DNA from: a virus
Strand: one strand, 5' to 3'
DNA length: 64,000 nt
Virus record (IMG/VR): IMGVR_UViG_3300028581_000013
Part shown: positions 18,024-48,300 of the stretch, piece after piece
How the letters are laid out: the number at the start of each line of letters is the position of its first letter
Position numbering within the stretch: position 1 is the first letter of the stretch
The notes under the pieces: generated by a model
Seen by the model: only the letters and a program-made list of their open reading frames with translations
Database searches by the model: none
Told to the model about the DNA's origin: nothing
Translations under genes and position numbers: made by a program

Positions 18024-19507
18024 GTGATTTAATTATATCAAAAAAAGATGAGGTCTATGCCAAGATAACTTGTGAAAAACACATCACAAAAGAATTATCA
18101 GAGTTCTTTACTTTTTTTGTTCCTGGTTATCAATTTGTTCCTGCGTATCGCAATCGAGTTTGGGATGGAAAAATTCGTATGTTTAATTTACAAACGAATC
18201 AAATCTATCTTGGTTTATTACCATACATTGAGGAGTTTTGTAGAGAAAGAGAATATGAGTTTGAATATGGTGATCCAAGGCCGGACGTTGAAGATGAATA
18301 CTCGGTATATCATGCGAAGAAATTCATAGGAGAGTTGAATATTCACGCTCGAGGTGAACCAATTGAAATACGAGAACATCAATTAGATGCATACATTCAT
18401 GCCATGCAAAAACGCCGAGCGTTGTTGGTTTCTCCAACGGCATCTGGCAAATCTCTTATCATCTATCTAATCTTCCGTCAATTACATCAATATCAAAATC
18501 TCAAAGGTCTTATCATTGTTCCTACCACATCTTTGGTTGAACAATTATACTCCGACTTTGGTGATTATAACAATGGTGAAATGACCAAGGTGCATCGTAT
18601 TTACCAAGGTAAAGAAAAAGACACCGACAAGCCACTTACCATTTCTACATGGCAATCTCTGTATAAACTTCCAAAAGAATACTTTCACCAATTTGATTAT
18701 ATCGTTGGTGATGAGGCACATCTATTCAAAGCACAATCACTCACCACAATATTGACCTCCTGTGTTAATGCTAAATATAGGATAGGTCTTACAGGTACAT
18801 TAGATGGTACCAAAACACATAAACTGGTGTTAGAAGGTTTGTTTGGTTCAGTCAAAAAAGTAATTACCACAAGAGAGTTAATTGATAAACAGCAAGTTTC
18901 AGATTTTGAAATTAAGTGTTTAGTTTTAAAACACGATGATGAGATATGTTTACAATTAAAAGATAAAACATACCAAGAAGAAATACAGTATCTAATTGCA
19001 AACGAAAATAGAAATAAATTTATTAAGAATCTTGCAGTTAGCTTAGGTAATAATACATTGATATTGTATCAAATGGTTGACAAACATGGTCAAATACTAT
19101 ATGATATGATTAAGAACACCGAAAAGATTGGTGATCGAAAAGTTTTCTTTGTTCATGGTGGCACCGATACAACAGATAGAGAAGAAATAAGAAGAATAAT
19201 GGAGATAGAAAATGATGCGATTGTTGTGGCATCTTTTGGTACTTTTAGCACTGGTATCAACATTCGCAATCTACACAATATCATCTTTGCAAGTCCTTCT
19301 AAGTCAAGGATTCGTAATCTGCAATCTATCGGTAGAGGATTACGACAAGCTGAAGGAAAAGAAAGAGCAACACTCTATGATATTGCCGATGATTTACGAT
19401 ACAAGAAACACATAAATTTTACATTAAAACATTTTGTTGAACGAATTAAAATTTACACGGAAGAAAAGTTCCCATTCAAAATATATAAAATAGGACTAAA
19501 AAAATGA
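18020..19507 (+). CDS. uvsW: DNA helicase UvsW
   Basis: SPTASGKS, DEAH, GLTGT, QSIGRGLR. Confidence 0.96.
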   Translation: MSDLIISKKDEVYAKITCEKHITKELSEFFTFFVPGYQFVPAYRNRVWDGKIRMFNLQTNQIYLGLLPYIEEFCREREYEFEYGDPRPDVEDEYSVYHAKKFIGELNIHARGEPIEIREHQLDAYIHAMQKRRALLVSPTASGKSLIIYLIFRQLHQYQNLKGLIIVPTTSLVEQLYSDFGDYNNGEMTKVHRIYQGKEKDTDKPLTISTWQSLYKLPKEYFHQFDYIVGDEAHLFKAQSLTTILTSCVNAKYRIGLTGTLDGTKTHKLVLEGLFGSVKKVITTRELIDKQQVSDFEIKCLVLKHDDEICLQLKDKTYQEEIQYLIANENRNKFIKNLAVSLGNNTLILYQMVDKHGQILYDMIKNTEKIGDRKVFFVHGGTDTTDREEIRRIMEIENDAIVVASFGTFSTGINIRNLHNIIFASPSKSRIRNLQSIGRGLRQAEGKERATLYDIADDLRYKKHINFTLKHFVERIKIYTEEKFPFKIYKIGLKK

Positions 19508-25300: not shown

Positions 25301-26565
25301 TGGCAAGAGTAGAACCCGTAGAAACACAATGGAAAAGGTGGACAGAAAAAAATCCATCGGACCAGATTCGGCATATTGATAAAGAACAGTTAACAAAAAC
25401 TGTTACTCAAGATTTAGAATATGCCTCTCAAATGGATGTTCGTGAATATACTTTATATCAAAAATGGTGTGAAGTAAAAGAAAGATATCCAGGCAAAGCT
25501 AGTGTGAATATGTTTGGTGATCCAGATATTTCTTGGGAAGATGATGCACAAGCAGCTATTATAAACAAAGTAAAAAACAATATTTGGGTTCCTAAAGATG
25601 TGGATGATTTTCAAAACCTAGAACCTCAAATGTATCTGGCTAATACTAATCGTGTTGATGAATGGAATGCTATAAGAACATTTTCTTCTACAATGAAAAA
25701 CAATTCTAATATTGGAAGAAATTTATATTACATTGTTAAAGATAAAAAAACGAATAAGTATCTTGGTGTTATCTGTATCTCATCAGACTTTTTAGATTTA
25801 ACTCCTAGAGATAAAGCAATTGGCTGGTCCAGAGATGTGAAAACATCACAGAGTATGATTAACCACACAGCAATAGGTTCAACAATTGTACCACTACAAC
25901 CTCTTGGATATAATTACATGGGTGGTAAATTACTCGCATTATTATGTTTATCTGACAAAGTTCAAAATGATTGGAAAGAAAGATATGGTGATGTTTTGGT
26001 AGGAGTTACAACCACTTCATTATATGGAAAAACTAAAGCGGGTGGTCTTTCTCAATATGACGGCCTCGAGCATTGGAATTCTATGGGATTCTCCTCTGGC
26101 TCTGTTGCCTTTGAACCAACAAAACAAACCAAACAGTTGATTTTTGATTGGATAAAAGAAAACCATACTCGCAAATATTTTGAATGGTGGGAAGCAAAGA
26201 ATCCACAAGGATTGCCACTCAAACGAGATCACAAAAATCGTTCATTACATTTTGCTTATCCAAAACTTGGTATATCAAAAGACAAAACTAGAACAGAACA
26301 CCAACGTGGTATATATTTTAGTTATCTCTATAATAACACTTGTGAATTTTTACGAAAAGAAATTACAGAAGATAAACTGGTAAAGTCGTTTGATACCAGT
26401 GAAGAAGCGTTAACAAACATCTGGAAAACAAAGTATGCCAAAGGTCGTATTCGGCAACTACAAAAGAAAAACAATGTTTCATATGAAACACTTTTCTATG
26501 ATGATTTGATTTATTTAACTTGGGAAGAAACCAAGGCAAAGTATTTGCCACAAGTTGGCAGATAA
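25300..26565 (+). CDS. DUF4338/DruA-like protein, paralog 1
   Basis: LTPRDKAIGW, IVPLQPLGYNYMGGKLLALLC, TTTSLYG, SQYDG. Confidence 0.65.
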   Translation: MARVEPVETQWKRWTEKNPSDQIRHIDKEQLTKTVTQDLEYASQMDVREYTLYQKWCEVKERYPGKASVNMFGDPDISWEDDAQAAIINKVKNNIWVPKDVDDFQNLEPQMYLANTNRVDEWNAIRTFSSTMKNNSNIGRNLYYIVKDKKTNKYLGVICISSDFLDLTPRDKAIGWSRDVKTSQSMINHTAIGSTIVPLQPLGYNYMGGKLLALLCLSDKVQNDWKERYGDVLVGVTTTSLYGKTKAGGLSQYDGLEHWNSMGFSSGSVAFEPTKQTKQLIFDWIKENHTRKYFEWWEAKNPQGLPLKRDHKNRSLHFAYPKLGISKDKTRTEHQRGIYFSYLYNNTCEFLRKEITEDKLVKSFDTSEEALTNIWKTKYAKGRIRQLQKKNNVSYETLFYDDLIYLTWEETKAKYLPQVGR

Positions 26566-32774: not shown

Positions 32775-33001
32775 GTTTCTTAGTTCAACATCAATTATTA
32801 AATAATCAAAAACGAAAATTTGATCCCAAAAATAAAAAAGACATTGAATTATTTAAAATGTTTTTAACGGAAAATAAATGGAATGGACCTTGTCCTTTTC
32901 TTTTAGAAGAACCACATACTGTAATTCCTGAAATGTTAAAAGACAAATATATTCGTAGTCAATTTAATATTCCAGAACCTATTGGTGAAATTTTAAGATG
33001 A
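32771..33001 (+). CDS. Hypothetical protein
   Basis: ORF with GGAG SD, coupled on both sides. Confidence 0.65.
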   Translation: MSFLVQHQLLNNQKRKFDPKNKKDIELFKMFLTENKWNGPCPFLLEEPHTVIPEMLKDKYIRSQFNIPEPIGEILR

Positions 33002-33171
33002 ATTGGTTGAAATATTCTGGTTGTAATATTACATTAAAATTAAATCCATTTCATTGGAGATTAAATTTCAGTAAAGGTAGTGAGAATGATGCTTGGGAAA
33101 TTTCAACATCATATATTATTGAATTATTACCTATCACGATCCGAATATGGATTGATGACGGTAGTTGGTAG
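32998..33171 (+). CDS. Small hypothetical protein (57 aa, MNWLKYSGCNITLKLNPFHW...), not in the ORF track
   Basis: ATGA overlap with the previous gene; stops 7 nt before the tRNA. Confidence 0.6.
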   Translation: MNWLKYSGCNITLKLNPFHWRLNFSKGSENDAWEISTSYIIELLPITIRIWIDDGSW

Positions 33172-33178
33172 ACCAAAG

Positions 33179-33253
33179 GGGCCTTTAGCATATCGGTAGA
33201 TGCGTCCGGCTCATAACCGGTTGAAGAAAGTTCAACTCTTTCAAGGCCCACCA
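33179..33253 (+). tRNA. tRNA with CAT anticodon, most likely tRNA-Ile2 (lysidine type)
   Basis: GGGCCTT/AAGGCCC acceptor, A73, CCA encoded; C4-G69 and C5-G68 are TilS determinants; loop CTCATAA. Confidence 0.85.
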
Positions 33254-33606
33254 ATATTGTTTTCTGGATAATGTGTTTCCATGTGGCAGTTATGACAAAG
33301 CACAACACATTTTTTGGCTTCTTGTAAAAGTTTATCAAATTTTGTGTTGGAACAATGTCTAAGATCCAATGTAAACTCTTTATCGTGTAAATGGTGAAAA
33401 CATAATGCAGAATAATTTTTTTTGTATCCACAAATATTACATTGGCCACCTAGTGTGTTTAATAATTTAATTTTGTTTTTTTCTCCACGAACTCTTTGAG
33501 ATTTATATGCTTGATTTCTTATATTACTACTTTTCATTTTACAAGAAACTGAGCAATACATTTTTTGCAAACCAGTTAGTTTATTTGAACATATTTTACA
33601 ATTCAT
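33241..33606 (-). CDS. HNH endonuclease with N-terminal Cys zinc finger
   Basis: CKIC..YCSVSC; GGQCNICGY...FHH...LCHNCHMETH; AGGAGG SD. Confidence 0.85.
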   Translation of the reverse strand: MNCKICSNKLTGLQKMYCSVSCKMKSSNIRNQAYKSQRVRGEKNKIKLLNTLGGQCNICGYKKNYSALCFHHLHDKEFTLDLRHCSNTKFDKLLQEAKKCVVLCHNCHMETHYPENNIGGP

Positions 33607-33664
33607 ATTGAGTCCTCCTATTAATATATAGTATTATGAAGTTTTTCATAAACCTTTTAAAACT

Positions 33665-34111
33665 ATGAAACAAAAATTTATTGACGCTTACATGGATGTG
33701 GCAGAGAGATTTGCCAAATTATCCAGTGCCAAACGATTGAAGGTTGGTGCCATTGTGGTAAAAGATGACCGAATTATATCTATCGGTTATAATGGTATGC
33801 CAGCTGGCTGGACCAATGAATGTGAAGAAGTGGTAGAATACCTAGAAGATGGTGGTACTATCACCAAAACAAAGGATGAAGTGATCCACGCCGAGGCTAA
33901 TGCCATCGCTAAACTGGCCAAAAGTAGTGAATCTGGAGATGGTTCCACCATGTTCCTGACACATGCTCCATGTATTCATTGTGCAAAACAAGTCTATACC
34001 GCTGGTATTAAAAAGGTATATTACCGTAATTCGTATCGAGATACCATCGGCATAGACTTCTTAAATCATTGTGGTATATCAGTAGAACAAATTTCACCTG
34101 GTGAAAACTAG
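33665..34111 (+). CDS. cd: dCMP deaminase
   Basis: IGYNG, HAEANA, PCIHC. Confidence 0.93.
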   Translation: MKQKFIDAYMDVAERFAKLSSAKRLKVGAIVVKDDRIISIGYNGMPAGWTNECEEVVEYLEDGGTITKTKDEVIHAEANAIAKLAKSSESGDGSTMFLTHAPCIHCAKQVYTAGIKKVYYRNSYRDTIGIDFLNHCGISVEQISPGEN

Positions 34112-34117
34112 ATATCA

Positions 34118-34125
34118 CCTAAATA
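34118..34125 (+). promoter_or_regulatory. Late promoter variant CCTAAATA
   Basis: Intergenic, upstream of the metallopeptidase. Confidence 0.5.
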
Positions 34126-34164
34126 TTTGAGAAGTATTAGTTGGTTTTCACAGGAGAAACCTCA

Positions 34165-34701
34165 ATGCAACTCAGTATAATCGGATGTCCCGATAAGAAA
34201 CGCTTTCGACCTTTTGTTAAGCGTGCGGCTATTTTTTATGCCGGACAACTGATGACACCTAAAATGATAGAAAACATTAGTGTCCGTATTAAGTTTGATC
34301 CAAAACTTGATGCTCTTGGATATGCAGAAGTATTGGATTATAATGATAGCAATAAACCTAGAGAGTTTCAGATTGAAATAAATCCTTTATGTGGTTCACA
34401 TGATATATTGGAAACTATAGCACACGAAATGGTTCATGTTAAACAATATGTGTATGGCGAAACCAATGAATATGGTACACGATGGAGAGGTCAAAGAATT
34501 ACCGAAAATATGGATTATTATGATGAGCCATGGGAAATAGAAGCACACGGGTTATCCACAGGATTGTTTACCAAATTTGCTATCAAAGAAAAATTATGGG
34601 AAGTGTTTAGTGATGTTCGTAATCCGGATGCACCACTCAAACCAGAACCAATAGCATGGTTAAATATACCACAAATAAGTGTTGACAATCACACTATATA
34701 A
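34165..34701 (+). CDS. Zincin-type (HExxH) metallopeptidase-like protein
   Basis: TIAHEMVHVKQ ... PWEIEA; AGGAG SD. Confidence 0.8.
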   Translation: MQLSIIGCPDKKRFRPFVKRAAIFYAGQLMTPKMIENISVRIKFDPKLDALGYAEVLDYNDSNKPREFQIEINPLCGSHDILETIAHEMVHVKQYVYGETNEYGTRWRGQRITENMDYYDEPWEIEAHGLSTGLFTKFAIKEKLWEVFSDVRNPDAPLKPEPIAWLNIPQISVDNHTI

Positions 34702-34710
34702 TGTTATAGT
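34682..34710 (+). promoter_or_regulatory. Sigma70 promoter TTGACA-N17-TATAGT with extended -10 TG, driving the tRNA-Gly-like RNA
   Basis: Ends 9 nt before the RNA 5' end. Confidence 0.8.
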
Positions 34711-34719
34711 ATTACATAT

Positions 34720-34789
34720 GCGGTCGGGGTATAGAACCAGAGTAGGTGTCCAACTTACTCATCTAGTGCGAATCTAGACCACCGCTCCA
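34720..34789 (+). tRNA. Non-canonical 70-nt tRNA-Gly(TCC)-like RNA
   Basis: GCGGT.GG/CCACCGC acceptor, U73, CCA; minimal D arm; 7-bp anticodon stem with TG-TCC-AA loop; T arm TCTAG-TGCGAAT-CTAGA. Confidence 0.75.
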
Positions 34790-34809
34790 AATTCTTTAAG
34801 GACTATATC

Positions 34810-34983
34810 ATGGCAGTTTCAAAATCAAAAAAGAAAAATCCAATGTTGACTAAAAATGGCAAGCCAAGATTAGGTCCATTAAATCTTAAACAGCTTAATG
34901 ATATGTTAGAAAAATCTAGTAGACCAAAAGATAAAGCTAAGATTCAAAAACGCATCACCGAATTGGCTGCACGGCCCCTTTAG
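34810..34983 (+). CDS. Small basic protein (57 aa, MAVSKSKKKNPMLTKNGKPRLGPL...), not in the ORF track
   Basis: AAGGA SD; stop codon lies inside the 5' end of tRNA-Thr. Confidence 0.65.
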   Translation: MAVSKSKKKNPMLTKNGKPRLGPLNLKQLNDMLEKSSRPKDKAKIQKRITELAARPL

Positions 34984-35047
34984 TTAAATGGTATAACGCT
35001 AGATTTGTAATCTTGAATTGTTAGTTCGATTCTATCAAGGGGCACCA
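34974..35047 (+). tRNA. tRNA-Thr(TGT)
   Basis: GCCCCTT/AAGGGGC acceptor, A73, CCA; loop TT-TGT-AA; TTCGATT T loop; one T-T mismatch each in the anticodon and T stems. Confidence 0.8.
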
Positions 35048-35640
35048 TTAGGAGGATTCATAAAATTTTCAATTAAAGTTGTAACATCACCATATTGATA
35101 ATCTTCAAGCATTTCGATGACAATATCAACAATTTGAATTTGTCTTATGAAATTTTGTAATTCGTTTTCATGGTTCTTTAATTGATTTTCGGCAAACATT
35201 TTTAACATATTTTCACCTTGCTCATTTTTCTTTTTAATTTTTTTGATTATTTTTTTTAATCTGAATATGTAACCATTACAAGTATTAATGTTATTGTTTA
35301 TGTTTAGTTTTTCTCGCCTACTTTCATTTTTCATAATCAGTATTAGATCATCAAGATCGGGATTAATGTTTGGAAGTAAATTGAAAAATAACCGACTAAG
35401 TTGTTCTAGAGCTTGATCACGGAGACTTGTACCAGATTCGTAATGACCGGTGGTGTCGTATTTTTTTCTGTTAACGGGATCACTTAAAACTTCATAGGCG
35501 TTTTTTATTTCCTTGAATATTTCAGGATCGCCGCCTTTGTCTGGATGATGTTGTTGAGCGAGTGATTTATATTTGGCTTTAATTTCTTCAAATGTTGCAT
35601 TTTTAGAAACGCCTAAGATATCATATAGATTTTTATTCAT
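35035..35640 (-). CDS. DnaJ (J-domain) protein
   Basis: NLYDILGVSKNAT...QHHPDKGG...AYEVLSDPVNRKKYD; ATG at 35640. Confidence 0.9.
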   Translation of the reverse strand: MNKNLYDILGVSKNATFEEIKAKYKSLAQQHHPDKGGDPEIFKEIKNAYEVLSDPVNRKKYDTTGHYESGTSLRDQALEQLSRLFFNLLPNINPDLDDLILIMKNESRREKLNINNNINTCNGYIFRLKKIIKKIKKKNEQGENMLKMFAENQLKNHENELQNFIRQIQIVDIVIEMLEDYQYGDVTTLIENFMNPPNGAP

Positions 35641-35645
35641 ACATG

Positions 35646-35653
35646 TATTTATA
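35646..35653 (-). promoter_or_regulatory. Late promoter TATAAATA (minus strand)
   Basis: Exact consensus, 5 nt upstream of the J-domain ATG. Confidence 0.7.
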
Positions 35654-36367
35654 ATGAGTTCCATACCTAAAATTGCACACGTTGCTTGGAAGACTAAAGA
35701 TGTGTTCGACAGTAAATCACCACTCATTGTCAATGGTTTGCGCAAACTAATTGATTTGAATCCTGACTGGACTGTTACAGTACATGATGATAATGATGTG
35801 GATGAATATCTAAGAAATGTTTTAAATAAAAGAGATTACAATTTAATTAAAGATATACATATAGTTGAAAAAACTGATTTATGGAGGCTCTTTAAATTAT
35901 ACAATGAAGGTGGTCTTTACATTGACATTGACCGTTTTTGTAATATACCATTGTCAGCAATTATAACAGATGGTATAAAGTGTGTATTACCAACTTGTTT
36001 GGAGTGGGATTTTTCACAAGACTTTATGTTGACTGAACCTAAAAATCCAATTCAAGCAAAAACAATTGAATTGATATTACAGAGGCGGTATGAAGGACAT
36101 AAGAATGTTTTCTTTTTAGGTCCACAAACATACATGCACGCCGTAACAACAGTATTATTTGGTGAAATGATTAACACGGATCCTGGTGTTGAGAAGTTTG
36201 ATGAGATGCGTAAGTATATGGAACAAATTCCGTTTATTAAAACATACAGGGAACATCCACCCCACAATACAATAATTTATAAAGGTGATGGTGTTCTGGA
36301 CTGGGAAAAATTAAAAAAAGAATTTTATGCTGAGGCCAATATAAAACATTGGTCTGGTGAATGGTAA
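35654..36367 (+). CDS. Glycosyltransferase, GT32/Och1-like (DxD)
   Basis: IPKIAHVAW, KTDLWRLFKLYNEGGLYIDID. Confidence 0.85.
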   Translation: MSSIPKIAHVAWKTKDVFDSKSPLIVNGLRKLIDLNPDWTVTVHDDNDVDEYLRNVLNKRDYNLIKDIHIVEKTDLWRLFKLYNEGGLYIDIDRFCNIPLSAIITDGIKCVLPTCLEWDFSQDFMLTEPKNPIQAKTIELILQRRYEGHKNVFFLGPQTYMHAVTTVLFGEMINTDPGVEKFDEMRKYMEQIPFIKTYREHPPHNTIIYKGDGVLDWEKLKKEFYAEANIKHWSGEW

Positions 36368-36368
36368 T

Positions 36369-37082
36369 ATGAAAACAATAACACTACCTAGATTACTACA
36401 ACCTTATTACTGTTCCGACCTTGTTAGAGTTGGTAAAAATAATGATGGTGGTTATCTTTTAAATAAAAATGATATATTGAAAAGTGAATGTTTATTATCC
36501 TTTGGCATCAATGATGACTGGTCTTTTGAGGATCAATTTCTTAAAATTAAAGATTGTCCTTTATTTGGTTATGATAATTCCGTAAATGATGTTATGTTAA
36601 AAGATAAAGGATTGTATGAATCTCATAAAGAATTTTTTACTGGTACAAAACAACACATAACGAAAAACATAGGTAAAAATAATACATCCGATGAAATCAC
36701 TTTTGAATCTGTTTTAGAAAATAAAGGTAAAAATATTTTTTTAAAGTGTGATATTGAAGGTTCTGAATATAAGATTTTAGACAATATACTCACACACACA
36801 AAATTGTTTTCTGGTATTGTGATTGAATTTCATGATATACAAGATAATTTTAACTTGAATGAAATGGCTAATTTTATTAGTAAATTGGATCAAAAATTAG
36901 TTCATGTACATATAAACAATTATTCTTATATGCAAATTGATGAAAATCAATATATACCTTCAGTTGTTGAATTGTCTTTTACTTCATCAGATAATATAAA
37001 ATTAAAAAAACATATTAATTTTCCAAATTCTTTAGACATGCCAAATTGTCCAGAAAGAGAAGATTTTACCATAATATTTTGA
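36369..37082 (+). CDS. FkbM-like SAM-dependent methyltransferase
   Basis: RVGKNNDGGY, LSFGINDDWSFE, LKCDIEGSEY, IEFH. Confidence 0.8.
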   Translation: MKTITLPRLLQPYYCSDLVRVGKNNDGGYLLNKNDILKSECLLSFGINDDWSFEDQFLKIKDCPLFGYDNSVNDVMLKDKGLYESHKEFFTGTKQHITKNIGKNNTSDEITFESVLENKGKNIFLKCDIEGSEYKILDNILTHTKLFSGIVIEFHDIQDNFNLNEMANFISKLDQKLVHVHINNYSYMQIDENQYIPSVVELSFTSSDNIKLKKHINFPNSLDMPNCPEREDFTIIF

Positions 37083-37172
37083 AAAATGGTTGGATGTTCG
37101 GAGCCTCCGAAAATTTTTTTGCCATTCTCAAGATTCAAAAAAGTAATTTTAGTTTTTGATATATATAATTAT

Positions 37173-37247
37173 AGCGGGGTAGCTCAGAGGTAGAGCATTG
37201 GACTCATAATCCAGGGGCCGTAGGTTCGATTCCTTCCCCCGCAACCA
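37173..37247 (+). tRNA. tRNA-Met(CAT), initiator-like
   Basis: AGCGGGG/CCCCGCA with unpaired 1:72, A73, CCA; loop CTCATAA; only two G-C pairs in the anticodon stem. Confidence 0.85.
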
Positions 37248-37260
37248 ATAAGGAGATATT

Positions 37261-37404
37261 ATGACACAGCCAAAAACCAAAGGTGGAGTTTCACCAATTG
37301 AGATTCACACTATTCCTAAACCAAAAACTCCATCAACACCAAAACCAAAACAAACATTTGTTCCTAAGATGACTGTAATGCGAAAGGCAGGTAGAGGTAG
37401 ATGA
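37261..37404 (+). CDS. Small Pro/Lys-rich protein (47 aa), not in the ORF track
   Basis: AAGGAG SD; MTQPKTKGG...RKAGRGR. Confidence 0.6.
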   Translation: MTQPKTKGGVSPIEIHTIPKPKTPSTPKPKQTFVPKMTVMRKAGRGR

Positions 37405-37568
37405 CATCCGATTTAGAGAAGTATCGTCAACAAGCTTTAGAGTTATGGTTTAATAATGGAGGTTCATGCACTGGTGCACAGCCACCTGAACCAAAAGATA
37501 TTGATGATGCAATAGCTGAAGATGAAGAATTTAAACGAATAGGAAAATTAAATGATTCAAATCACTGA
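37401..37568 (+). CDS. Small hypothetical protein (55 aa, [17 protein letters not shown]...), not in the ORF track
   Basis: ATGA coupling to the previous ORF. Confidence 0.55.
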
Positions 37569-47194: not shown

Positions 47195-48300
47195 TGATCA
47201 ATAGGGATCAGGCACTTCATTGTGCTGGTGTATTTAAAGATTACTTTAGTAACATTGGAAGTACCGAAGAATACATGCGTGATGAGAAACTGAAGAATGT
47301 GGCTGATATGCCATCTTCTTTATTTCCAATTGAAGATGATTTATTCTCCGATTTCACAATGCACCCAAAAGATATGGATATTGAAGTGTGTGAAATACCA
47401 AACGATGTTTGGGAACCTTTACTTGCCATTACCAGTTCACACATCAATAAAGCACCAGTTGGTAAGAATATTCAATTGGCAGTCAAAGAAAGAAACTCAG
47501 GAAAGATTCTAGGATTCATTCGTTTGGGTTCACCAGTAATCTATATGAAACCTCGTAATGACTACCTAGGACAAGTTTGGATTCAAAATGAAGATACTGC
47601 CAAGCGGTTCAATACGGCTTGTGTTATGGGTTTCGTAATTGTACCATCTCAACCATTTGGTTTTAATTATCTAGGCGGTAAACTTTTATCTGCCATTTGT
47701 GCCAGTCATACCGTAAGAGAAATCTGTAATAAAAAATACGATATGAATATCTGCTTGTTTGAAACTACCAGTTTATATGGAAGTACCAAATCGGTTTCAC
47801 AATATGATGGCATGAAACCTTACATTCGTTTTAAAGGCTTAACAGAATCAGATATTGTGCCAATGATGCACGGCCAAAGATATACTGATTTGAAAAAATA
47901 CGTGGAGGATATTACTGGTGATTTATTGGGTGGAGATACTTCAACAACGAGTAGAAAACTCAGAACATTCACTAAGATTATTGCTCTCACCAAAGCTGCT
48001 TTAAAAGGAACACCTGAAGGAGATGCTTTCTCTTTAACGATTGACAATGCCAAAAAGTTGACAGAAAAGAAACGATATTATATTTCTGATTATGGATTTA
48101 AAAATACTGTTGATTACATGAATTGTAAGACCGACAAACTTTTACCTGGTGAAAATTACAAGAAACATGAACTATCAAATGTAATCGAATGGTGGCGGAG
48201 TAAAGCTATAAATAGATATGAAACCCTTAAAGCTGAGGGTAGATTACGAACAGAACTTGAAGTATGGACTTCAGGTAAAGACATTCAAATTATTAGGTAA
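47191..48300 (+). CDS. DUF4338/DruA-like protein, paralog 2
   Basis: GFIRLGSP...PRN, IVPSQPFGFNYLGGKLLSAIC, ETTSLYG, SQYDG. Confidence 0.65.
   Translation: MMINRDQALHCAGVFKDYFSNIGSTEEYMRDEKLKNVADMPSSLFPIEDDLFSDFTMHPKDMDIEVCEIPNDVWEPLLAITSSHINKAPVGKNIQLAVKERNSGKILGFIRLGSPVIYMKPRNDYLGQVWIQNEDTAKRFNTACVMGFVIVPSQPFGFNYLGGKLLSAICASHTVREICNKKYDMNICLFETTSLYGSTKSVSQYDGMKPYIRFKGLTESDIVPMMHGQRYTDLKKYVEDITGDLLGGDTSTTSRKLRTFTKIIALTKAALKGTPEGDAFSLTIDNAKKLTEKKRYYISDYGFKNTVDYMNCKTDKLLPGENYKKHELSNVIEWWRSKAINRYETLKAEGRLRTELEVWTSGKDIQIIR
48207..48214 (+). promoter_or_regulatory. Late promoter TATAAATA
   Basis: Exact consensus about 90 nt upstream of ATG 48304. Confidence 0.6.

Follow-up and report, generated by a model that had tools for sequence, protein, structure and literature searches.

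The closest described counterparts of the RNA reported here are the non-proteogenic tRNA-Gly species of staphylococci, which carry TGC or TGT in place of TTC in the T loop, are without pseudouridine, are charged by glycyl-tRNA synthetase (GlyRS) and bind both EF-Tu and the ribosome poorly (PMC7826273). Those of S. aureus and S. epidermidis – NP1–NP3 – are glycyl donors for FmhB, FemA and FemB. Here we describe a small RNA encoded by a virus (IMG/VR virus record IMGVR_UViG_3300028581_000013; 136 kb, 82% complete) within a stretch of 64,000 nucleotides (nt), hereafter the window, which is a part of that record. The RNA is 70 nt long, ends in an encoded CCA and belongs to a phage-specific family whose members, like NP1–NP3, appear to be paralogues of tRNA-Gly(UCC) that have kept the identity set of GlyRS, carry G for U55 in the T loop (12 of 12 representatives) and coexist with a proteogenic tRNA-Gly.

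The resemblance has clear limits. NP1–NP3 fold as cloverleaves of full size whose anticodon arm is normal and keeps U33; they are cellular, restricted to staphylococci, and the Fem transferases that use them are known. The RNA described here, in contrast, is phage-encoded, measures 65–70 nt across its family, has a reduced or absent D arm, a central stem of 7–9 bp and a variable region of 1 nt, and in lineage derives from a phage tRNA-Gly(UCC). An earlier reading of the same stretch (the original prediction) had drawn the staphylococcal parallel on three grounds, of which the T-loop triplet and the poor binding of EF-Tu are borne out by the literature (PMC7826273); the third is the missing D-loop GG. 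We found no description of this RNA family in the literature. It is probably a tRNA-derived, non-proteogenic tRNA-like RNA. What is new relative to the staphylococcal examples is that it is viral, extends through a whole clade, comes in several forms and has been reduced much further.

The minimum-free-energy fold of the window RNA is a cloverleaf (−25.5 kcal/mol, z = −3.18; none of 200 shuffled sequences folds as well), and it scores 101.9 bits against covariance model R1, one of the family models described below. Its parts are listed in Table 1. The acceptor stem runs into the D stem with a linker of 0 nt, the variable region is a single nt, and the central loop holds G at position 33 (34748) with C35 and C36 at 34750–34751. 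The RNA thus lacks the canonical elongator set of U8/N9 linker, 4-bp D stem, G18G19, U33, 5-bp anticodon stem, variable region of at least 4 nt and T54-Psi55-C56. Every sequence feature that the original prediction had listed is present where it was placed, and its expectation that tRNA finders would pass over the RNA was correct: ARAGORN makes no tRNA call for the window RNA, for form B (below) or for other members, and Rfam RF00005 gives no match to the window RNA at its gathering score, nor at E≤10 on a 301-nt slice (34600–34900). The other Rfam overlaps with the RNA (PutA thermometer, mir-374) are at noise level.

Table 1. Features of the tRNA-like RNA and of its transcription unit, in window coordinates.
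Feature	Position	Strand	Details and basis
Whole tRNA-Gly-derived tRNA-like RNA (form A)	34720..34789	+	70 nt, encoded CCA; fold, homology, conservation, covariation
Acceptor 5′ strand	34720..34727	+	G1 C2 G3 G4 U5 (bulged C6 at 34725) G7 G8; 7 bp with 34779–34785
Reduced D arm	34728..34738	+	3-bp stem GGU/ACC, 5-nt loop AUAGA, without GG and without U8/9 linker; fold
Central ('anticodon') arm	34740..34760	+	7-bp stem plus U-A closing pair, loop UGUCCAA 34747–34753; fold
T arm	34762..34778	+	5-bp stem, 7-nt loop UGCGAAU 34767–34773, G replacing U55 at 34768; fold
Acceptor 3′ strand and 3′ end	34779..34789	+	Acceptor strand 34779–34785, discriminator U73 34786, CCA 34787–34789; sequence
Sigma70-type promoter	34682..34710	+	−35 TTGACA 34682–34687; TG 34702–34703; −10 TATAGT 34705–34710
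Basic open reading frame, 57 aa, conserved ribosome-binding site	34810..34983	+	Downstream of the RNA; co-transcribed in this subclade
Canonical tRNA-Thr(UGU)	34974..35047	+	ARAGORN and Rfam, 65.5 bits; next in the transcription unit of the tRNA-like RNA

Loci of relatives were collected by way of the upstream 186-aa protein and by way of an exact 35-mer. About 20 of the loci fetched share the 70 nt at 100% identity, among them L021–L024, although identity of the adjoining protein is down to 67% there. The 14 distinct variants of this form (form A) differ almost solely at paired positions, and all of their 322 pair cells hold standard pairs. Three pairs show two-sided changes – 5–62 (U-A/A-U, switched from U-A to A-U in 3 of the 14 variants), 43–59 (U-A/C-G) and 44–58 (C-G/U-A) – and four pairs of the central stem vary through G-C/G-U and A-U/G-U wobble changes, none of them being broken. 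All seven acceptor pairs are paired in every cell, the bulged C becomes U in L213, and the central loop is identical throughout the 14 variants.

A second form, of 67 nt, was recognized in L027–L029 and spans, for example, L027:3772–3838; promoter, 5′ end and 3′ end are those of form A, the interior is another, and a canonical tRNA-Gly follows. A scan for the common 14-nt 3′ end, filtered by the 5′ end, yielded 20 variants of this form B. Among them 99.1% of pair cells are paired and nine pairs carry two-sided changes, the 3-bp D-type stem for instance covarying from A-U to G-C; none of 500 shuffles comes up to the real alignment on any of the five measures used, and the signal is lost in slid controls. 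Taken over forms A and B together, compensatory changes affect 12 pairs, and the acceptor 3′ strand, U73 and CCA are constant in all 34 variants, the covarying fifth pair excepted. The original prediction had held the RNA to be functional rather than randomly decayed, and had named a covariance model built from related phages as a way to decide the matter; models of both forms were built, and compensatory changes are present in each. Conservation and covariation together indicate that the RNA is functional and under selection, and not a decaying tRNA.

The covariance models also recovered more divergent members, in L034, L031, L050/L080, L063, L055 and L037 and in the near-complete genomes G004 and G005. 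A member is present in all six long phage records searched (the record of the window and five others). Exact-pattern scans of some 185,000 prokaryote genomes with the cores of forms A and B, which divergent copies would escape, gave no match.

The descent of the family is plain from an alignment with the canonical tRNA-Gly(UCC) of related contigs. The two share their ends (GCGG...CCGCUCCA) and the loop UxUCCAA, and differ in that the RNA has lost bases from the D loop and the variable region and has G for U33 and for U55; the loop of the canonical phage copies is always UUUCCAA. The genomic arrangement is of the same kind. A canonical tRNA-Gly(UCC) lies 4–7 nt from the RNA in L025, L026, L098, L027–L029, L063, L080, G004 and G005, and in L025, L026 and L098 it begins 4–5 nt past the CCA of the RNA, occupying 3634–3707 in L025. 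G004 has tRNA-Gly(GCC), tRNA-Thr, tRNA-Gly(UCC), the RNA 7 nt further on, and then tRNA-Met, and G005 repeats this order as far as the RNA. The alignment thus upholds the origin from tRNA-Gly(UCC) that had been predicted, and indicates that the RNA is a paralogue, by duplication, of the phages' own gene. Forms A and B both coexist with a canonical tRNA-Gly in L213 and L180, whereas the genome of the window, in whose 136-kb record no canonical tRNA-Gly was found anywhere, retains form A; from this we take the RNA not to be redundant with the normal tRNA.

Loci with both forms give a glimpse of how they are packed. In L213 the two copies lie at 1704–1773 and 2147–2213, both on the minus strand, and form B, a small basic open reading frame (ORF), form A and the canonical tRNA-Gly follow one another within about 600 nt. 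L180 likewise carries both forms.

A critical issue is which parts of the tRNA selection has retained. Across 12 representative members of the family G1-C72, C2-G71, U73, CCA and a CC within a central loop of 4–5 nt are kept without exception, as are the G-C pair that closes the 7-nt T loop and the G at the second T-loop position (U55 in a tRNA). Pair 3–70 is G-C in 11 of the 12 and A-U in the other (A3-U70 in L037). Elsewhere there is freedom: acceptor pairs 4–7 vary, the D arm has at most 3 bp and in L055, L037 and G004 is absent or unstructured, the central stem measures 7 to 9 bp, and T-loop position 56 may be C, G, A or U. The central loops seen are GUCCA, UACCC, UUCCC, UCCC and CCCA. G33 is fixed in those with GUCCA (class A), whereas class B keeps U33; in form B the base preceding CC is A or U, so that ACC and UCC alternate, and the following base is C or A (C37). 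The pair that closes the loop covaries, from A-U to G-C in form B and, in class A, from U-A in the window RNA to G-C in L055, L037 and G004. By what is established about tRNAs, a flipping wobble base, a pyrimidine at 37 and G33 are not what is expected of a decoder under selection.

The positions that do not vary are those by which bacterial GlyRS knows its substrate: the bacterial glycine identity set consists of U73, G1-C72, C2-G71, C35 and C36 (PMC9976931), and the window RNA holds it in full, G3-C70 included. Since the invariant positions coincide with this set, the RNA is most likely glycylated by the GlyRS of the host. The original prediction had seen that GlyRS identity elements are kept where translation-related norms are departed from, and the family shows the same pattern: position 33 is altered, 34 and 37 are variable, and 32–38 covaries. 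The argument from EF-Tu in that prediction does not discriminate. The window RNA does have U-A at 49–65 and at 51–63; however, 49–65 is C-G in half of the variants and is not a set feature, and the canonical phage tRNA-Gly, with A-U, U-A and U-A at 49–65, 50–64 and 51–63, is equally weak, so that the T stem offers no contrast from which escape from EF-Tu could be read.

Compact architecture has precedents among tRNAs that decode with ordinary machinery, namely tRNA-Pyl (M. barkeri, D. hafniense and M. alvus) and mammalian mt-tRNA-Ser(UCN) (PMC7609411). The phage RNA shares with them a linker of 0–1 nt, a D loop of 4–5 nt without G18G19, a T loop without T-Psi-C, a longer anticodon stem and a shorter variable region (PMC7609411). 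Yet these tRNAs keep a 6-bp stem and a variable region of 3 nt, a trend that the phage RNA exceeds with its 7–9 bp and 1 nt. Further marks of that class are a fixed anticodon and a standard 7-nt anticodon loop in which 33 is U and 37 a purine – U33 and A37 are named among the identity elements of M. barkeri tRNA-Pyl (PMC7609411) – whereas the phage RNA has G33 in class A and variable positions 34 and 37 in class B. There is no sequence relationship between the two groups, the phage family being derived from tRNA-Gly.

RNAC and RNAD of phage T4, by position the nearest precedent among phages, are longer than this RNA and are likened to it by genomic setting alone, as small non-tRNA RNAs from the tRNA region of a T4-type phage. 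Their function within the T4 tRNA cluster is still unknown (PMC3014915, PMC9697503); they are classed as late RNAs (PMC9697503), and nothing ties them to tRNA-Gly. Phage tRNAs that evade tRNA-targeting host defences, such as those of T5, are also phage-encoded and depart from the host's in the anticodon loop (PMC10264068). These, however, are otherwise canonical and translation-competent and replace cleaved host tRNAs, whereas the RNA described here is without canonical architecture and stands beside a normal tRNA-Gly.

The promoter that precedes the RNA matches 11 of 12 consensus positions, has a spacer of 17 nt with an extended −10 TG, and is the top-scoring sigma70 site of the 4.5-kb region scanned (33000–37500). 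Its −35 box coincides with the final codons of the ORF at 34141–34701; the RNA starts nine bases past the −10 box, and the predicted transcription start falls 2–4 nt 5′ of G1. The promoter is kept upstream of form A and of most copies of form B. Logan contigs from four metatranscriptome studies cover 34519–34818 at 95–100% identity, coverage of a sort that cannot give the ends, strand or abundance of an RNA and to which carried-over DNA may contribute.

Homologues of the 57-aa basic ORF usually lie directly 3′ of form A or form B, in many contexts of one subclade. Its protein family (53–75 aa; homologues in L005, L008, L171, L201, L204, L213 and others) has the core NPMLTK-x-GKPRLGPLN-xx-QL and gives no Pfam, PHROG or informative Atlas match. 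We considered this ORF as an obligatory partner of the RNA and rejected it, as it is absent near L027–L029 and near all divergent members. Its stop codon (34981–34983) falls within tRNA-Thr, which begins at 34974, so that processing of the tRNA by RNase P would remove the stop from the mRNA.

Our data lead us to propose, with about even confidence and from sequence comparison, that the RNA is a compact derivative of tRNA-Gly that matures like a tRNA, is glycylated by host GlyRS and works off the ribosome, as a glycyl carrier or as a charged decoy. The course of events that we infer would begin with duplication of a phage tRNA-Gly(UCC) gene, from which the compact tRNA-like family arose. Transcription would start at the strong, early-type sigma70 promoter with a leader of 2–4 nt or, in relatives, take place within tRNA arrays; RNase P would form the 5′ end, and the 3′ end would be trimmed to the encoded CCA. 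The tRNA-array context and the encoded CCA are what make such processing plausible. Selection that keeps the acceptor helix, U73, CCA and C35-C36 would then secure glycylation by the host enzyme. Traits typical of decoders, by contrast, have not been preserved: the T-Psi-C/GG elbow, an open loop of 7 nt, U33, a wobble base that stays the same and a purine at 37. The charged RNA would therefore largely remain outside translation, to be used either as a glycyl carrier for a transferase or as a charged decoy that draws off host factors directed against Gly-tRNA-Gly or the 3′ ends of tRNAs.

Several considerations weigh against this proposal. G1-C72, C2-G71, U73 and CCA could be kept for RNase P or for another binder of the acceptor end, and the NCC of the loop could serve another ligand. 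A pairable 32–38 is frequent among tRNA-Gly species (PMC7826273). Compact-core traits by themselves prove no off-ribosome role, as tRNA-Pyl and mt-tRNA-Ser(UCN) share them and decode (PMC7609411); this weakens those departures as evidence against decoding, the use to which the original prediction put them. The RNA-library contigs run on through the promoter and the end of the upstream ORF and so give no evidence of a discrete small RNA. No FemAB (PF02388), Fem-like GNAT Acetyltransf_6 (PF13480) or MprF-type LPG_synthase_C (PF09924) domain was found in the 82%-complete phage record; supply of a transferase, as originally predicted, thus finds no support there, although such an enzyme may belong to the host. 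Nor did that record yield a GlyRS alpha, a class IIa synthetase core or a CCA-adding enzyme. A window genome devoid of canonical tRNA-Gly also fits the replacement of tRNA-Gly by form A in translation. Finally, identity across divergent contigs could partly come from recombination and not from purifying selection alone; the compensatory changes in pairs are not explicable in this way.

How, then, do other explanations account for the same observations? One alternative, in our view rather unlikely, is an unusual tRNA-Gly that truly decodes: compact in its core, it would be charged by GlyRS, delivered by EF-Tu and read GGA (form A) or GGU and GGA (form B) on the host ribosome. Its architecture would extend a compact-core design known to work on ordinary ribosomes (PMC7609411), and the helical stacks are near-canonical, with 7+5 bp for acceptor and T and 3+1+7 layers for D and anticodon; an NCC triplet is retained along with the glycine identity set, the window genome has no other tRNA-Gly, and the family sits in tRNA arrays with tRNA-like spacing. 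Against these stand the G33 fixed in class A, the pyrimidine 37 and the A34/U34 switching of class B, and a pair 32–38 that covaries in Watson-Crick fashion. A central stem of 7–9 bp with a 1-nt variable region exceeds any decoder described in the compact-core literature (PMC7609411), the tRNA covariance model is silent even at E≤10, and in many genomes a canonical tRNA-Gly with the same anticodon adjoins the RNA. The opposite extreme, a decaying and functionless pseudogene of tRNA-Gly, would explain the silence of the tRNA finders and the many departures from the tRNA consensus. It is effectively refuted by covariation and conservation: 100% identity over divergent contigs, 12 compensatory pairs over two forms, a member in each of the six long genomes searched and a conserved, dedicated promoter leave it next to no probability.

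An uncharged structural mimic, acting as a sponge or decoy for a binder of the tRNA acceptor/T domain or of tRNA-Gly (a nuclease, a 3′-end modifier, RNase P or a modification enzyme), is unlikely but has more to commend it. Defences directed at tRNAs occur widely, many of them acting on the loops or 3′ tails, and tRNA genes are a means by which phages answer them (PMC10264068, PMC11555353, PMC12851939); a retron HEPN effector cleaves the anticodon loops of tRNA-Gly(UCC). Several structurally distinct paralogues per genome, with fast turnover of D arm and loop, resemble arms-race diversification, and a strong early promoter would suit a stoichiometric inhibitor. The central loop, however, is no faithful copy of the tRNA-Gly anticodon loop – it is non-canonical, small and different between paralogues – and the decoy for anticodon nucleases offered as an alternative in the original prediction is for this reason a poor fit. 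The constant CC in loops that otherwise vary is best explained by recognition by GlyRS, and we found no tRNA decoy of such a kind in the literature. Very unlikely, to our mind, is a role in cis, in which the tRNA shape would recruit RNase P or RNase E and set the 5′ end of a downstream mRNA or tRNA with no function in trans. Here the RNA is indeed the first element after the promoter, a ribosome-binding site (RBS) and ORF or a tRNA lies directly 3′ of it, and the overlap of the ORF stop with tRNA-Thr intertwines processing and coding. In distant genomes, though, it sits among ordinary tRNAs that need no added punctuation; the conservation of the loop CC, U73 and CCA would be superfluous for such a task, and two different forms per genome are hard to account for.

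If the RNA is charged and kept out of translation, we can offer its use only tentatively. It might feed an as yet undiscovered transferase, of phage or host, whose substrate would be DNA, protein or the envelope, or it might be the first aminoacylated RNA decoy for toxins directed at Gly-tRNA-Gly or at 3′ ends. TacT-type acetyltransferase toxins read Gly-tRNA-Gly via U73 and G71 (PMC9976931), and both positions are invariant in the family. Under the decoy reading the paralogues A and B would serve different partners.

Other candidate partners and functions were set aside. Two paralogues of the DruA/DUF4338 family lie at about 25687–26355 and 47449–47781 (G000:C1:40380–41048 and 18954–19286; 72.6 and 34 bits), and homologues occur in all five other long phage records, four of which have both. 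DruA is known from the Druantia defence system. In these phages the DruA/DUF4338 family is a core gene of the clade, and its co-occurrence with an RNA that is also clade-wide is uninformative as to a functional partnership; we found no link of DruA to aminoacyl-tRNA in the literature. Pairing of the loop GUCC with the downstream RBS GGAC would involve only 4 nt, the loops of form B differ, and many copies precede a tRNA. The UGU motif of tRNA-guanine transglycosylase in the form A loop is not common to class B.

The carriers of the family are a clade of uncultured freshwater T4-like phages. Their DNA has a G+C content of 32–38%, megablast of the 4.5-kb region gave no DNA-level match to cultured phages, and the nearest cultured phages by protein (about 33% identical) are the T4-like Caulobacter phage Cr30, the Methylophilales phage Melnitz and cyanophages. 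Ordinary tRNAs called by ARAGORN within the window number three (Met, Thr and Met). Two minus-strand ORFs, at 33241–33606 (Cys-rich, 121 aa) and 35035–35745 (a DnaJ-domain protein), both terminate within the 3′ end of plus-strand tRNA genes, respectively tRNA-Met (33179–33253) and tRNA-Thr (34974–35047).

The related loci hold further items of interest. At L031:3612–3805, immediately before tRNA-Pro, some 190 nt that hold no evident ORF come after a promoter-like TTGACA box; this may be another structured RNA of the tRNA cluster. ARAGORN reports a 'tRNA-Ile(tat)' of 91–93 nt, with its anticodon placed oddly at 31–34, in L044:4886–4977, L042:4667–4758, L066:4194–4285 and many distant loci; its neighbours are always tRNA-Ser(gct) on one side and tRNA-Cys on the other, and it may be either a type II tRNA that was miscalled or a long-arm tRNA of an unusual sort. 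The Rfam ROSE_3 thermometer is matched below its gathering score of 43 in L029:1344–1408 (30.2 bits) and L025:1632–1701 (24.1 bits).

Phage tRNA genes are now viewed as weapons in the contest over the host tRNA pool, and to our knowledge all known examples are working tRNAs. The family described here is of another kind: a clade-wide, strongly selected phage RNA, in several coexisting forms, to which only the 'chargeable' half of tRNA-Gly identity is left. It also means that in viral metagenomes tRNA-derived genes of a recurring class escape standard tRNA finders, and it provides a natural test of how far the body of a bacterial tRNA can be reduced and still be recognized by GlyRS, RNase P and EF-Tu. 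Should the RNA prove to be charged and to act off the ribosome, the staphylococcal non-proteogenic tRNAs would have in it their first counterpart among viruses, and it would point to a new glycine-transfer reaction or to a new RNA-based counter-defence.

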